Shown one piece after another: positions 11,297 to 16,387 of a DNA stretch of 64,000 nucleotides; position 1 is the first letter of the stretch; each line of letters opens with the position of its first letter. The position numbers and the translations under genes are program-made. Below the pieces are notes generated by a model. The model saw only the letters and a program-made list of their open reading frames with translations. It was not told the DNA's origin and did no database searches. Origin of the DNA: an uncultured Spirochaetota bacterium (GTDB taxonomy: Bacteria; Spirochaetota; Spirochaetia; SZUA-6; Fen-1364); NCBI GenBank assembly GCA_963781885.1, contig CAWAHW010000005.1, positions 224,001-288,000 of the forward strand, given 5' to 3'.

Positions 11297-13318
11297 ATGG
11301 GGCGGACGGGAATCATCGTCGGCACGCACAACCATCTTCCCCTGGGACGCAGCGAGGCGTCCGCCGAGCGGCTCTACCAGGAGGCCCTGAAGCCGCTCCT
11401 CGCCGTGCTCTACCGCTGCCCGGCGTTTCCCATGACGCTCCACTACAGCGGGATCCTGATGGAATGGCTGGAAGAGGCGCATCCCGAGTTCCTTGCGCTC
11501 CTGGGTGAAATGGTGGGCCGCGGCCAGATCGAGGTACTTGGCGGCGGCTACTACGACCCGATCCTGCCGATGCTCCCGATGAACGACAAGCTCGGACAGC
11601 TGGAGAAGATGACCACGTGGCTGCGCGTGCACTTCGAGACGCGGCCCCGCGGGTGCTGGATCGCGGAGAAGGTATGGGAGCCGGCGCTCGCGTCCGTGCT
11701 CCGCGCGAGCGGCATCGACTACACGTTCGTCGACGACGGGCAGTTTGCCCTGGCAGGAGCCGCGGAGGGATCCCTGTGGGAGCCGGCGATCATGGAGGAC
11801 CAGGGGAAGATCATCTCGCTCCTCCCCGTCGCGGACAGGCTGTCGCGGCTTGCCACCACCTCGTCGCCCGGGGAGGTCATCGAGCGCCTGCGGCACCTGC
11901 CCTCGACGTCGGGGAAACCCGGCGGTGGGGGGCATCCCCTTGCCGTCATCATGGACGACGGCGCGACGGCGGTTTCGACCTTGCTGCGCGACGGCTGGCT
12001 GGAGGAGCTCGTCCGCTGCGTCGCGGAGAACGCCGACTGGCTGGAACCGGTGACGGCGGGGCAATACCTCAAGGATCATCCGCCGACGCATCGTCTCTAC
12101 GTTCCCGCGAGCGCTTCGGCGAGCATCATGAGCTGGAGCCTCGCTCCCGGCCGGAGGGAGGCGTACGAGCGTCTGCGCGGCCAGGCGGACGCCGGGGAGG
12201 AGCAGTTCCTCGTCGGCGGGAATTTCCGCAACTTCCTGGAGCGCTACCCCGAGGCATGGCTCCTCTACGCGAAGATGATGAACACGCACGTCATGGTGAG
12301 CCAGGTGCGGGGCGACAAGTACAAGAAGAAGGCCGCGCAGAACGAGCTGTGGAAGGGGCAGTGCCACTACGCGTACTGGCACGGTGTGACCGGCGGCATC
12401 TATGAGAACGAATTGCGCAAGGCGACGTATAGGTCCCTCATCGAGGCGGAAAAGATCACGCGCGCCACGGAGATATTCGCTCCGTCGATCATCGGCGTCG
12501 ATTTCGACATGGACGGCAGCATCGAATACCTCTACCAGGGCTCGGAGCTGAACGCGTACATCCACACCGAGGGTGGGGCGCTTTTCGAGCTGGACTTTCT
12601 CCCCGCCTCCTGGAATTACCTGGACACAATGGTCGATCGTGATCCCCTGCCCGGGAACGGTGCGGAGGAAAACGCCGGATCGTCCGCGCCCTATACGCGC
12701 AAGGCTTTCATCGACCATTTCTGCACATCGGACTGCTCGATCGCGGACTTCGAGGCGGGTCGCCACCGCGAGGCGGGGGACTTCACGCGCGGGCTGTACG
12801 ACCTCGTGGAGCTCAACCGCGCGCTTCCCGAGCTCCTGATGCGCCGTGACGGCTCCGTGCTCGTCGACGGCGTGCCGCGGCCCGTCCGCATCGAGAAGCG
12901 CTTCGTGTTCCGTCCCCGGTCGATCGACGTGTACTACCGCGTCACGAATCTTGCCGAGAGCGACCTGGCGACGACATTCGGCGTGGAGATCAATCTCTCC
13001 CTTGCCGCGCGCGGGCCCGAGCATGGAAGGCTTTTCCAGATCGAGGAGAACAGGAAGATGGAGTTCGGCTCCGATGCCTCGGAGATCGACGGCGTGGGCG
13101 CCCTGCTCGTGCGGGACGTGCGCAACGAGGTCTCCGTCACGCTCTCATCGGCAAAATCCTTCCGCTCGTGGAGCGTGCCCGTGCAGACCGCGTCGCGCGC
13201 GGGCCAGAGCGAGTTCCAGTCGCACTGCTTCGTGCCGCTCTGGGCGCTGGCGCTCCACGCGGGGGAGTCCTGGGAGAACCACATGTCCGTGGGCTTCGAG
13301 AAATCCCAGAGCGCCTAG
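11297..13318 (+). CDS. GH57 alpha-amylase / 4-alpha-glucanotransferase
   Basis: HNHLP, GGGYYDPIL, GCWIAEKVWEP, NFRNFLERYPE, GQCHYAYWHG. Confidence 0.9.
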   Translation: MGRTGIIVGTHNHLPLGRSEASAERLYQEALKPLLAVLYRCPAFPMTLHYSGILMEWLEEAHPEFLALLGEMVGRGQIEVLGGGYYDPILPMLPMNDKLGQLEKMTTWLRVHFETRPRGCWIAEKVWEPALASVLRASGIDYTFVDDGQFALAGAAEGSLWEPAIMEDQGKIISLLPVADRLSRLATTSSPGEVIERLRHLPSTSGKPGGGGHPLAVIMDDGATAVSTLLRDGWLEELVRCVAENADWLEPVTAGQYLKDHPPTHRLYVPASASASIMSWSLAPGRREAYERLRGQADAGEEQFLVGGNFRNFLERYPEAWLLYAKMMNTHVMVSQVRGDKYKKKAAQNELWKGQCHYAYWHGVTGGIYENELRKATYRSLIEAEKITRATEIFAPSIIGVDFDMDGSIEYLYQGSELNAYIHTEGGALFELDFLPASWNYLDTMVDRDPLPGNGAEENAGSSAPYTRKAFIDHFCTSDCSIADFEAGRHREAGDFTRGLYDLVELNRALPELLMRRDGSVLVDGVPRPVRIEKRFVFRPRSIDVYYRVTNLAESDLATTFGVEINLSLAARGPEHGRLFQIEENRKMEFGSDASEIDGVGALLVRDVRNEVSVTLSSAKSFRSWSVPVQTASRAGQSEFQSHCFVPLWALALHAGESWENHMSVGFEKSQSA

Positions 13319-14625
13319 AGGTCGATCCTCTCCAGCTTCTGGAAACAGGCGTCGATCCACGCCGCGCTTTCCTGGTAGAAGGAGTCCTGCGCGGAGAGGA
13401 ACTCCAGGAGGGCATCGCGATCGCGCCCCTCGATGAAGTAGACCTGACCGAGATAGAATCGCGCGCGGGCCTCGACATCCGGGGAACGCGGCAGGCTCAG
13501 GAAATCGTCGAGCTTTTTCTGCGCGCCCGGCATGTCGCCGCCGAGGAAGGGACCCTGCACGATCTCCTGGAGACGCGCAATCTCCCCGTTCGGGCTCGGT
13601 GTCAGATCGGAGCGCAGCACCTGCGGCGCGGGTTGGAACGCCGCGGCCGGCGGGAGTTGCGACAGGAGCCGGCCGATCGCTCTTTCGGTGTCCGGCGCAA
13701 CCTTCCGTTCGGCGGGCAGGTCGGGGACGTCCGCGGCGGGCAGGGCGGCTCCGGATTCCACCCCGAAGCTCAAGGCGAGGGAAGGAAGCGGGAGGGCTCG
13801 ACGCTCGGCAACCGGCGCCCGCAGGGAGATGTTCCCCGATCCGACGGGAAGCTGGACCGGCTGCGCGGTGACATTGTCGCCTTTGACGAGCGGAGTCTGG
13901 CCGATCTTGTACAAGCCGCTATCGAGCACGGCGAACCAGTAATCCACCCCGGGGAGCGCGGCAAGAACATAGCGCGTTGTACCGGCCTTCAAGGCCGCCG
14001 TGGAGGTGGTCTTCAGGAGGTCTTCGGGAACCGTGAGGGGCGCGGTGCCCCAGAAGAGGAGAAGGTCGCGGCCGGGATTCGACGTTGAAAATGAAACGGC
14101 GATTCCGTCCCCACCGGTCGTGGGGGCTGCCCGGATGCCCGTGATTGCCGCCGCCAGCTTCTCCTCGGGAGCGGAGGAAGTCGGTGCAATGGGAGCGCTC
14201 GTCTTGTTGCGGAACGGGATGATGAGCGGATAGACCGTGCCGTCGGAATCCTCGAACAGCACGGCGTAGAAGTACCCGTTCCTGTCGGGAGGCGTATCGA
14301 TGTAATACTGCGTTCCCGACGCGGCCTTGCCCACGAGCTGCGCCGTCCCGATGTTTTGCGTCGTGATCTCCACGGACGAGCGGTAGACAAGGCATGTGCC
14401 CTTGGCCCCTGGCGGGTCGACCCACGAAAGCTTCACCTGGTAGTCCACCGGCTCGGCGCTCAGCCGGGAGACGAACAGGGTGCTGGTCGCATCCCCCGCG
14501 GGAGCGGACGCCTGCTGGGCCCCAAGGGGCGCGCCCAGGAGCAGCGCGATGCACAGCAGCGCGAAGCGGCGCCGCGCCGCCGGGCGGTCGAGCGATGCAC
14601 ATGCAAGGTCCGGGCGCTTCGGCAT
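13315..14625 (-). CDS. Hypothetical exported protein (beta-rich N-terminus, C-terminal TPR-like helices)
   Basis: Signal peptide, ARFYLGQVYF TPR-like tail, GGAG RBS. Confidence 0.7.
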   Translation of the reverse strand: MPKRPDLACASLDRPAARRRFALLCIALLLGAPLGAQQASAPAGDATSTLFVSRLSAEPVDYQVKLSWVDPPGAKGTCLVYRSSVEITTQNIGTAQLVGKAASGTQYYIDTPPDRNGYFYAVLFEDSDGTVYPLIIPFRNKTSAPIAPTSSAPEEKLAAAITGIRAAPTTGGDGIAVSFSTSNPGRDLLLFWGTAPLTVPEDLLKTTSTAALKAGTTRYVLAALPGVDYWFAVLDSGLYKIGQTPLVKGDNVTAQPVQLPVGSGNISLRAPVAERRALPLPSLALSFGVESGAALPAADVPDLPAERKVAPDTERAIGRLLSQLPPAAAFQPAPQVLRSDLTPSPNGEIARLQEIVQGPFLGGDMPGAQKKLDDFLSLPRSPDVEARARFYLGQVYFIEGRDRDALLEFLSAQDSFYQESAAWIDACFQKLERIDL

Positions 14626-14670
14626 TCGATTCTCCTTCCCTCCATTGTTGTCGGCTTTTCAGGGTGTTGT

Positions 14671-14910
14671 CCATAGCCATGGATGGCGAGGGCCGACGAG
14701 TCCAGGGACGGACGAGAGGAGGCCCATAGCCATGGATGGCGAGGGCCGACGAGTCCAGGGACGGACGAGAGGAGGCCCATAGCGTAGCGCGGTACGCCGC
14801 GCGAAGGGCGGCAGCCCCGCTTGCGCGGCGAGAGCCGCATGGATGGCGAGGGCCGACGAGTCCAGGGACGGACGAGAGGAGGCCCATAGCGTAGCGCGGT
14901 ACACCGCGCG
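14671..14910 (+). repeat. Three identical 53-bp units (14678-14730, 14731-14783, 14838-14890); units 2 and 3 are each followed by a near-identical 20-bp hairpin tail
   Basis: Unit CATGGATGGCGAGGGCCGACGAGTCCAGGGACGGACGAGAGGAGGCCCATAGC read three times; tail GTAGCGCGGTAC(G/A)CCGCGCG at 14784-14803 and 14891-14910. Confidence 0.95.
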
Positions 14911-14967
14911 TGAGGCGCTCTCCGCTTTACAGGCCTGTGCCGCGCCATTGCCGTACTATTGGCCATC

Positions 14968-15240
14968 ATGTTTGTCGCCGTGGCCTGCGATTTTGCAAAT
15001 GACGATCACCGCAAGGCAGGCTATGACCTGATGGTGCAATATGGTTTCCGCAAGGTCCTGAAGGACGCTTTCGAGAGCGCGACACTCTCCGAGACGGCGC
15101 TCAACCGTCTCAAGAAGGACCTTGACCGGATCGCCGATTCGGACGACAGCATCCGCCTCTACCAGTTTCCCGTCGATGGCACACTCGCCATCACGATATT
15201 GAAGGACAAGAAGTGGCGGCGGCTGATCGTGAAGGCGTAG
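14968..15240 (+). CDS. cas2: Stand-alone Cas2-like (VapD/Cas2 fold) protein
   Basis: 90 aa; beta1 ends in Asp (MFVAVACD); YGFRKVLKDAFE matches the Cas2 YGxRVQxSVFE pattern; DSIRLYQF matches DSIRIY; no other cas genes in the window. Confidence 0.7.
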   Translation: MFVAVACDFANDDHRKAGYDLMVQYGFRKVLKDAFESATLSETALNRLKKDLDRIADSDDSIRLYQFPVDGTLAITILKDKKWRRLIVKA

Positions 15241-15255: not shown

Positions 15256-16387
15256 ATGGTGCTCAGCGAGCTGGAACAGAAACTGCAGGCCCTCGGGGCG
15301 CAGATCGAAGAAACCTGGAGGGGTCTTTGACCCTGCGGCGCTCGAGCGGGAGATCGGCGAGATCGAGAACAAGACAGCGCAGCCCGATTTCTGGCAGGAC
15401 AAGGAAAAGGCCGGCGAGGTTCTGTCGCGTCTGAAGGCGCTGAAGCGCCGCTACGACCCGTGGGCGAAGCTTCGTACGGATTTCGACGACCTTTCCGGGA
15501 TCTGGCGCCTGGCCGTCGAGGAAAAGGACGAGTCGCTGGAAGCGGACCTGCGCGCGTCGTGGGAGGGGCTTTCAAGGCGCTACGGCGAGCTCAAGGTGCT
15601 GGAGCTGCTCGGCGGCGAAAACGATCCCTCCTCGGCGTTCCTCACCATCCACTCGGGAGCGGGCGGCACGGAGGCGTGCGACTGGGTGAGCATGCTCTAT
15701 CGCCTCTATACGCGCTGGTCGGAACGGCACGGGTACACGGTGGAAATACTGGACATCCTGGAGGCGGAAGGCGGCATCAAGAGCGTGACCGCGCAGGTGA
15801 ACGGGGCCTACGCCTATGGGTACCTCAAGGCGGAGACCGGCATCCATCGGCTCGTGCGCATCTCGCCGTTCGATTCCAATGCGCGGCGCCACACTTCCTT
15901 CGCTTCCGTCTTCTGCTTCCCGGTGCTGGACGACACGATCGACGTCGACATCAAGCCTGAAGACATCCGCATCGACACCTATCGCGCCGGCGGGGCCGGC
16001 GGTCAGCACGTCAACAAGACGGACTCGGCCGTGCGCATCACCCACCTGCCGACGGGCATCGTCGTGCAGTGCCAGAACGAGCGCAGCCAGTACAAAAACA
16101 AGGCCTTCGCGATGAAGGTCCTCCGCTCGCGTCTGTACGAATACTACAAGAACGAGCGCGACAAGGACCGGGAGAAGATTGAGCAGGAGAAGAAGGACAT
16201 CTCCTGGGGCAACCAGATCCGCTCCTACACCTTCCAGCCGTACACGCTCGTGAAGGATCACCGCACGAAGTTCGAGGCGGGCAACATCCAGGCGGTGATG
16301 GACGGCGAGATCGACTCCTTCATCGAGGAATATCTCAAGATGCTTTGGCGGGGAAAGAACGATGGCGGTCAACGTTCTGATAGTTGA
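15256..16387 (+). CDS. prfB: Peptide chain release factor 2 with programmed +1 frameshift
   Basis: MVLSELE...WRGL, then CTT-TGA-C at 15325-15331; SPF and GGQ motifs downstream. Confidence 0.95.
15317..15331 (+). promoter_or_regulatory. prfB autoregulatory frameshift cassette (internal SD + CTT TGA C)
   Basis: GGAGGGGT CTT TGA C. Confidence 0.9.

Follow-up and report, generated by a model that had tools for sequence, protein, structure and literature searches.

CsrA is a global regulator, and RNAs that act as its sponges are well established in Gammaproteobacteria (CsrB/C, RsmX/Y/Z). Repetitive extragenic palindromic (REP) sequences and bacterial interspersed mosaic elements (BIMEs) of enterobacteria and pseudomonads are short GC-rich extragenic palindromes that occur in tens to hundreds of copies and in mosaic arrays; they are positioned after genes and within operons, and the 5' tetranucleotide of REP is GTAG. 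The element described here resembles both. It is a repeat array at positions 14671-14910 of a 64,000-nt stretch of DNA (hereafter the window) from an uncultured Spirochaetota bacterium (GenBank assembly GCA_963781885.1, contig CAWAHW010000005.1), for which an initial annotation had proposed a CsrA-titrating small RNA (sRNA), a CsrA-controlled leader or a REP-like dispersed element. The reading we favour, by a small measure, is that of a REP/BIME-like mosaic module that would bring CsrA docking sites into transcripts.

CsrB, CsrC and RsmX/Y/Z consist of repeated GGA hairpins and are modular and amplifiable (PMC4894983). Beyond the Gammaproteobacteria, the accounts in PMC4333381 and PMC4894983 are limited to sponge candidates plus one CsrA-titrating mRNA leader. 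The flaA leader of Campylobacter jejuni, part of a FliW-type CsrA system, carries two GGA hexaloops 21 nt apart and can titrate CsrA (PMC4894983). FliW is anti-correlated with CsrB/C sRNAs, and FliW-type lineages tend to be without these sponges (PMC4894983). A spirochaete CsrA binds a hexaloop upstream of flaB in a GGA-dependent manner (PMC8668096). The TwoAYGGAY motif (Rfam RF01731, Csr/Rsm clan CL00106) has two GGA-loop hairpins with tandem G.A pairs and was proposed to bind CsrA (PMC4333381). Pseudomonas genomes have many TwoAYGGAY copies (median 11-23, maximum 202), which are associated with REP arrays and have undergone a 'mobile-element-like' expansion; action as a Csr/Rsm sponge is considered possible and left unresolved in that study (bioRxiv 10.64898/2026.09.22.753630).

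The three identical 53-bp units that the initial annotation had seen in a divergent intergenic gap are present. Tandem Repeats Finder gives a 53-nt period with 2.1 copies and 100% matches over 14671-14783, and in the register that begins with CATGG the segments 14678-14730, 14731-14783 and 14838-14890 are all identical. A repeat search further found a longer unit of 80 nt, 14731-14810, repeated at 14838-14917 with 95% identity. Each unit carries a structured element, here called the A module, and the order of modules across the 240-bp stretch is A-A-R-K-A-R, R and K being hairpin modules. Unit 3 lacks the seven leading bases CCATAGC, has the 3' arm of the K module instead and is 98.6% identical to unit 2 plus R over 73 nt; the stem of its first hairpin is shortened, which bears out the weaker stem noted at 14838. 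The six CANGGANG motifs reported earlier lie on the + strand at 14678, 14703, 14731, 14756, 14838 and 14863. The window holds 83 matches to CANGGANG on both strands, against 45.3 +/- 6.3 in shuffles; since six of them fall within 193 nt on one strand, the cluster is genuine. It is real, but it derives from a single unit copied three times.

The array is almost certainly part of a dispersed mosaic repeat family. In the organism's own genome (G000, a 4.64-Mb assembly of 7 contigs), a BLAST search with a 256-nt stretch gave 51 matches on 6 of the 7 contigs, iterated nhmmer searches with a single unit converged at 36 copies, and a covariance model of the A module (R1) gave 42 matches at E <= 2e-4, which we grouped into 36 loci. 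R1 was also used to scan the genomes of 60 relatives. All 20 congeners have matches (14-82 each), as do all four genomes from other genera of the family (4-32 each); in other families of the order matches are confined to 5 of 36 genomes, one with 11 and the others with one weak match each. About 900 R1 matches were obtained overall, and tandem copies at 53-nt spacing were seen in no fewer than seven further assemblies. Thus the REP-like dispersed element, offered initially as an alternative, is the part of the earlier interpretation that stands, with 36-42 copies in the own genome and matches throughout the genus. A search among sequencing runs gave no RNA run with this sequence and two DNA runs, each with 5% of sampled words; the DNA runs yielded 12 short contig pieces, most with an A module and different flanks and none spanning the array.

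Read 5' to 3', the consensus of the A module begins with C-(G/A)-TAG, followed by a 3-bp stem around A-N-GGA-N (hairpin 1), GAG and an outer stem of 7-8 bp; it continues with GA, a 4-bp inner stem around A-N-GGA-N (hairpin 2), G-N-R-A and the return arm of the outer stem. This fold was evaluated in 56 aligned sequences: alignment A2, with 23 full-length copies from the own genome, on which R1 is based, and alignment A3, with 33 copies from 29 loci in relatives, which were fitted to the model. In A2, standard pairs occupy 86.6% of cells against 67.0% after shuffling (0 of 500 shuffles as high), and 29-35% of cells when the pairing partner is slid; the covariation score is 0.385 against 0.093, again with 0 of 500 as high, and double changes occur in 9 of 15 pairs. 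The model-fitted A3 has 94.7% of cells paired and double changes in 13 of 15 pairs. Most unpaired cells of A2 belong to the tandem G.A pairs found in the two main subfamilies, and in other copies the entire outer stem is swapped for unrelated, perfectly paired sequence. The GC/GC and GTCC/GGAC stems and the outer GGGCC/GGCCC stem with tandem G.A mismatches, proposed at first for this locus alone, are therefore present and covary across 23 copies.

Against this background of changing stems, the loops are constant. All 23 copies of A2 share the triplets G13 G14 A15 and G38 G39 A40 together with the closing pairs C10-G17 and C35-G42, and by eye the C-ANGGAN-G loop columns are kept in the 27 full-scoring rows of the 33-row cross-genome alignment; the conservation of ANGGA loops in homologues that the initial annotation had asked for is thus found in the own genome and genus-wide. 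Near its 5' end, A2 has either G or A at position 5, followed by T6 and A7 without exception and by G8 in 22 of 23 copies. As to the strand, the original argument from tetraloop identity fails. Nevertheless, the + strand is favoured: the array folds at -130.3 kcal/mol (z -6.84) on the + strand versus -108.1 (z -3.54) on the - strand, where the tandem G.A pairs would become pyrimidine mismatches. A variant form was also seen. Six A copies (G000 C2:738339, C2:864300, C7:556905, C4:423390, C2:1045490 and C2:1045610) have, in place of the second GGA loop, a small nested hairpin (CCGC-TCCTG-GCGG) with AGTTGGAT after it; the TCCTG loop of this hairpin is the complement of CAGGA, and the same small hairpin is also seen inside K modules.

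CsrA is the obvious candidate ligand of the A module. The working range of site spacing for bridging by a CsrA dimer is 10-63 nt, and the GGA triplets of the module lie 25 nt apart inside a unit and 28 nt apart across units. The optimal spacing of two CsrA/RsmE sites is 18 nt, and apical hexaloops with CANGGANG are high-affinity CsrA/RsmE targets (PMC4894983). Both loops of the A module have this form, with GGA in a C-G-closed apical hexaloop that agrees with the published consensus (PMC4894983), as the first CsrA/RsmA reading of the motif had it. Further, the genome has the csrA and fliW genes whose presence had been left to be checked: csrA (PF02599, 84.9 bits, C4:176690-176848) adjoins fliW in an operon of the order flgL-like / fliW / csrA and encodes a CsrA of 96 aa. 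The flagellin genes provide an internal control. Three of the four own flagellin leaders contain a hairpin of the form stem-C-A(G/C/T)GGA(A/T)-G-stem about 20-28 nt upstream of a CA(A/G)GGAGG Shine-Dalgarno sequence; as judged from their sequences, these hairpins share the form of both A-module hairpins, and the leaders match the two-site layout described for CsrA-controlled flagellins. On this footing we consider it slightly better than an even bet that transcribed A copies truly bind CsrA. Within the family, csrA was found in 21 of 24 genomes, the three without it being 60-84% complete. Elsewhere in the order, csrA was not found in any of the seven genomes of one family (f7: G030, G037, G042, G047, G052, G056 and G059), five of them single-contig and 95-98% complete, and was found in all other families searched.

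Compared with TwoAYGGAY, the A module likewise has two hairpins with A-Y/N-GGA-Y/N loops and tandem G.A pairs in a stem, and is multi-copy and REP-associated. Rfam gives TwoAYGGAY as its sole match (22.9 bits, E 0.23, 14689-14756). This match owes its existence to a reading across the junction of two tandem units, from hairpin 2 of the first to hairpin 1 of the second; when 20 genomic copies were compared singly, not one gave a match, even at a cut-off of E <= 10. The first loop, ATGGAT, fits AYGGAY and the second, AGGGAC, does not, with R rather than Y at its position 2, which family-wide is N. Unlike in TwoAYGGAY, the outer stem of the A module encloses hairpin 2 alone and not both hairpins; a basal stem is lacking at this locus, and one of 5 bp (GCCAC/GTGGC) is possible by eye in copies nested in another hairpin, P (see below). 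The A copies stand in direct tandem and not as divergent doublets, and the host belongs to the Spirochaetota instead of Pseudomonas. In sum, the A module works like the TwoAYGGAY kind but does not qualify as a member. In the literature on CsrA with REP elements and on AYGGAY, the A module was not found described; the AYGGAY titles listed include none on spirochaetes, and the main body of PMC2864571 has no AYGGAY or CsrA text.

The likeness to REP/BIME extends to dispersal, to mosaic arrays with R, K and P, to sites behind genes and inside operons, and to the 5' [AG]TAG. Unlike REP/BIME, the A module has no RAYT (REP-associated tyrosine transposase) partner that could be found, forms direct tandem repeats instead of inverted pairs, keeps its loops and not only its stems, and has a TAG that frequently doubles as a stop codon. 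With the CsrB/CsrC/RsmX/Y/Z sponges the array shares repeated GGA hairpins and modularity. Each of those sponges has a single gene to itself, complete with promoter and terminator, whereas the A sites are spread over about 36 loci, within other transcription units or next to them. The two adjacent GGA hexaloops, 25 nt apart, recall the C. jejuni flaA leader, which, however, is a single 5' leader of a CsrA target and not a mobile module lying mostly 3' of coding regions. Mycobacterial interspersed repetitive units (MIRUs) are tandem intergenic units of 46-101 bp in operons, co-oriented with the genes, with ends that overlap flanking stop and start codons. To our knowledge they are not known for GGA hairpins and are said to hold small open reading frames (ORFs); the 53-nt unit, by contrast, is not a multiple of three.

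At the locus itself (Table 1), the array sits between a 436-aa gene on the - strand and a gene on the + strand whose Cas2-like nature, recognised initially, is supported by a match to PF09827 (29.3 bits). It starts 3 nt upstream of the predicted -35 TGGACA of the 436-aa gene. On the other side, the predicted promoter of the Cas2-like gene has a spacer of 22 nt here versus 17 nt in relatives, and the ATG follows 8 nt after its predicted -10; a relative's contig is without the extra 5 nt. Orthologous loci come from records of uncultured Spirochaetia/Spirochaetota metagenome-assembled genomes. An R1 scan of 24 such Cas2-like loci found the A module between the two genes in none, and A modules about 1.5 kb further upstream in three. 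In relatives the gap consists of a block ending in GTTGTCCATAG, 10-90 variable bases and TTTACA-N17-TACA(C/T)T with the ATG a few bases on (an anchor pattern for the GTTGTCCATAG block matched 9 of the 17 loci shown, and 3 more were recognised by eye); the window has an insertion of about 236 nt directly after GTTGTCCATAG. Judging by these comparisons, the array is very probably a recent local, species-specific insertion. The marks of a sponge gene (own promoter, terminator and conserved locus) are not found at 14671-14910. The array is not a gene of its own and may be silent or weakly transcribed here, and its association with the Cas2-like gene is incidental.

Table 1. Coordinates of the array modules and flanking features in the window.
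Feature	Position	Strand	Basis
A module, unit 1	14669..14727	+	covariance model R1, 76.3 bits; structure and invariant columns from alignment A2
Unit 1, hairpin 1	14676-14687	+	loop ATGGAT at 14679-14684
Unit 1, hairpin 2	outer stem 14690-14697/14718-14725; inner stem 14700-14703/14710-14713	+	loop AGGGAC at 14704-14709
A module, unit 2 (exact 53-nt tandem copy of unit 1)	14722..14780	+	R1, 75.7 bits; Tandem Repeats Finder 100%, period 53
R module 1 (GTAG, then hairpin GCGCGG-TACG-CCGCGC)	14784..14802	+	sequence; inverted-repeat pair I1
K module (single hairpin, outer stem GCGGC/GCCGC, variable apical part)	14808..14838	+	pattern search, 14 matches
A module, unit 3 (5' lead = 3' arm of K module)	14833..14887	+	R1, 52.2 bits
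R module 2 (GTAG, then hairpin GCGCGG-TACA-CCGCGC)	14891..14909	+	sequence; direct-repeat family D1
436-aa gene, no Pfam match, left neighbour	13315..14625	-	gene call and Pfam search
Predicted sigma-70-type promoter of the 436-aa gene, TGGACA-18-AACAAT	14644..14673	-	promoter scan; block kept in relatives
Predicted promoter of the Cas2-like gene, TTTACA ... TACTAT	14926..14959	+	by eye, orthologous intergenic comparison; missed by promoter scan
Cas2-like gene, 90 aa from ATG, right neighbour, followed by prfB	14968..15240	+	PF09827, 29.3 bits, E 1e-6

The surroundings of the array have features of their own. The solo Cas2-like gene directly upstream of prfB is kept in 24 relatives' loci with 54-91% identity. 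Its predicted promoter leaves 6-9 nt before the ATG, so that the Cas2-like mRNA would be nearly leaderless. The prfB gene (15257-16387, +) contains the classic programmed +1 frameshift site CTT TGA C at 15318-15332, preceded by a Shine-Dalgarno-like GGAGGGG; the Pfam domains resume in the next frame from 15596. Several A copies abut, at 3-4 nt, an opposite-strand -35-like hexamer of a divergent gene: TGGACA here (14668-14676) and (C)TTGAC at loci L138 and L160 and at C4:441165 and C6:252291 of the own genome. These hexamers are kept at empty orthologous sites.

As for the other modules of the array, the linker hairpin GCGCGG-TACG-CCGCGC of the initial annotation is present, as an R module. The two GNRA hairpins proposed next to it are better read as two strands of one K hairpin with arms GCGGC-A-GCC...GGC-GAGA-GCCGC and an asymmetric internal loop of A versus GAGA. 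Among 14 matches to the K pattern, nine have an R hairpin and GGAGG on the 5' side and the same arms with differing inserts. The R-K linker as an nhmmer query matched its own copy only, because the insert is variable. The exact palindrome core of R is rare (12 pattern matches on both strands), and the looser form CRCGG-TANN-CCGYG has 224 matches versus 7 in a block-shuffled genome; at a genomic GC content of 63%, simple motif counts for modules other than A are too noisy.

A second, commoner REP-like family shares the genome. This P hairpin, ATGCCACGG with a 4-nt NNTA loop followed by NCGTGGC, has 107 strand-specific matches at 36 loci in arrays of up to 12 copies (for example C2:95050-95140 and C6:377970-378130) and no clear orientation bias. 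By eye, about 11 of 29 full-length A copies are nested in the 3' arm of a P hairpin, with junctions of the type ...CCGT/AG...CCCGT/GG... (the slash marks the join). The own genome also has five IS200-like genes for Y1 transposases, four near-identical and about 578 bp long (C2:1128940, C2:1141082, C4:799806 and C6:11014) and one diverged (C5:309402). Their end hairpins are mutually related and unlike any module; their GC content also seems to be below that of the genome, a hint of recent spread. The Y1 family PF01797 was found in 12 of 21 genomes of the genus and not found in G012, G006 and G002, which are 96-97% complete and have 55-60 A matches. At 25 Y1 loci no A module adjoins, except for one 20-bit place seen in two overlapping loci. 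A RAYT-type partner of the A module is not supported.

Several results weigh against the reading of the A module as a carrier of CsrA sites into transcripts. In the window, the array lies between the -35 elements of two divergent predicted promoters and upstream of both; a scan of 14500-15100 gave the - strand TGGACA-18-AACAAT as the sole promoter-like match; on the + strand it reported nothing promoter-like, nor did it report any terminator-like site. No Rfam family reaches its threshold here, the gathering score of TwoAYGGAY being 43 bits. The csrA gene occurs in 5 of 7 other families, where the module is present in few or no genomes, so that the two are not exclusively co-distributed. Among the Y1/PF01797 proteins examined, no enzyme able to move the module was identified. 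The A module that lies 5 nt after the csrA stop codon and is followed by P-type hairpins (C4:176501-176558, -) is absent from the csrA loci of all nine congeners examined, and autoregulation of csrA through this copy was rejected for that reason. More generally, when the flanks of 55 relatives' loci were matched to the own genome, 26 orthologous sites were obtained, of which 23 are without an R1 match there. Since orthologous sites do not keep their copies, nothing points to a regulatory role tied to particular genes.

The same caution applies to the position of A copies relative to genes, which rests on our crude GC3-based (third-codon-position GC) gene calls covering 60-80% of each contig. 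Of 40 loci in three congeners, 30 follow a co-oriented gene, and at 22 of the 40, all among those 30, the TAG of the module is the stop codon of the upstream co-oriented ORF; judged from ORF ends, this holds for about 14 of 29 best-hit loci, and for 5 of 36 copies in the own genome. One A copy lies inside an operon, between rpsL and rpsG. A special mechanism for the overlap was suggested by comparison with harmless C[AG]TAG sites genome-wide, 7-9% of which are stop codons, and was dropped: about half of the sense-strand TAGs from the stop codon through the downstream gap (<= 400 nt) are stop codons, which makes about 50% the proper control for 22 of 40. Overall, TAG is the stop of 1152 of 3333 called genes, and by eye 13 stop-sharing sites that are empty in the own genome end in TAG (8), TGA (3) or TAA (2). 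A junction that bears a TAG, combined with a location downstream of genes, accounts for most of the coincidence, and a modest excess remains (22 of 30 sense-downstream loci). Orientation in gaps between tandem genes is affected likewise. Sense copies outnumber antisense copies by 10 to 1 loci in the own genome (13 versus 1 copies), by 12 to 1 among the best hits per genome and by 13 to 5 in the 40 further loci, but without the stop-sharing cases the last set gives 4 sense versus 5 antisense; a stop-sharing copy is sense by construction, and the bias is therefore partly a by-product of the TAG junction. The P hairpin, as a control, gives 9 sense versus 6 antisense, so the bias is stronger for A than for P, not decisively. 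The GC skew is too weak on all 7 contigs to assign a replication direction, which makes strand biases of replication and transcription inseparable. Concealment of a downstream Shine-Dalgarno sequence by the outer stem was considered and rejected in four cases, as the close starts are ATGs in the next repeat unit and rpsG has its own Shine-Dalgarno sequence after the module.

Dispersal, a covarying structure, invariant loops, insertion polymorphism, a TAG junction that is often the upstream stop codon and the lack of a RAYT partner are what is observed here. Under the reading we favour, an A module in a transcript, usually just after the coding region, would bind one CsrA dimer per unit through its two hexaloops, and the units together would form mRNA-embedded sites for docking or titration of CsrA in a FliW lineage without known sponge RNA. 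The modules would spread and amplify at the DNA level, with the tandem 53-nt duplication and the joining at TAG or inside a REP-like hairpin at CCGT/GG as visible traces. A more far-reaching version, in which the A module serves the Csr system as a mobile and distributed RNA arm, copies itself to gene ends, often provides the stop codon, recruits dozens of mRNAs as CsrA binders or sponges and rewires the CsrA network through species-specific sets of copies, is possible and remains tentative.

Alternatively, the A module could be a purely DNA-level selfish repeat, similar to REP/BIME or to miniature inverted-repeat transposable elements, with hairpins bound as single-stranded DNA by a mobilising or replication-associated protein and a CsrA match of no consequence. 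We regard this as rather unlikely, even though fast turnover (23 of 26 sites without a match), tandem amplification, nesting at CCGT/GG, a 5' [AG]TAG like the GTAG of REP, an insertion between promoters at this locus and an orientation bias largely explained by the TAG junction all agree with it. Such a repeat leaves unexplained why, with stems free to change, every copy has both loops in agreement with the 8-nt CsrA hexaloop consensus, why the identical hairpin form stands in three of four flagellin leaders and why tandem G.A pairs let one strand alone fold well; the Y1 transposase, moreover, was not found in three genomes rich in A matches, Y1 loci are almost devoid of adjoining modules and the own IS200 copies end in unrelated hairpins. 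The position after co-oriented genes (30 of 40 loci, 22 of 40 sharing the stop codon), the copy between rpsL and rpsG and the very stable fold would also suit an RNA element that is independent of CsrA, i.e. a GC-rich 3' structure that shields the upstream mRNA from 3' exonucleases or blocks Rho, as has been proposed for enterobacterial REP sequences. Stability alone, however, does not need invariant C-G-closed GGA loops, no T-tract terminators were found in 14500-15100, and some copies lie upstream of divergent genes, as here, which makes this account improbable.

The explanations confined to the locus fare worse. A CsrA-sponge sRNA with a gene of its own, or a leader through which CsrA controls the Cas2-like/prfB operon, has in its favour six consensus sites on one strand, co-oriented with the Cas2-like gene, and the odd 22-nt promoter spacer, which might give weight to transcription from upstream. 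Yet the array lies between divergent predicted promoters with no + strand promoter-like or terminator-like site in the region scanned, is absent from all 24 orthologous loci and consists of ordinary members of a family of about 40 copies. An sRNA, a conserved leader and a Cas2-like antitoxin are therefore unsupported at this site; we consider the local sRNA or leader of the initial annotation very improbable, while its alternative of a REP-like element with CsrA-type hairpins holds. That the triplication is an assembly artefact is hardly credible, as 53-nt-spaced tandem pairs occur in at least seven independent assemblies of relatives and the third copy is embedded in different modules and is no plain stutter. 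Tandem short repeats just upstream of a small gene of a nuclease-like family resemble ToxIN. A type III toxin-antitoxin-like repeat RNA that neutralises the Cas2-like nuclease is nonetheless given practically no probability, since the Cas2-like gene is kept without repeats in 24 of 24 relatives' loci, unlike in ToxIN-like systems, and the repeats are dispersed beside unrelated genes.

Arrays of this type call for caution in annotation and should not be called sRNA genes from a single locus. With about 40 copies per genome and a presence in all searched genomes of the genus, the A family is a concrete candidate, open to test, for control or use of CsrA by RNA in the Spirochaetota. The parallel with the REP-associated TwoAYGGAY of Pseudomonas would suggest that the association of mobile repeats with Csr/Rsm sites is a recurrent one. 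If a mobile Csr arm is indeed at work, the A modules would be the spirochaete counterpart of the Pseudomonas TwoAYGGAY elements, and they would add a layer of RNA antagonists to CsrA in a lineage of the FliW type, which is presumed to do without sponge RNAs.

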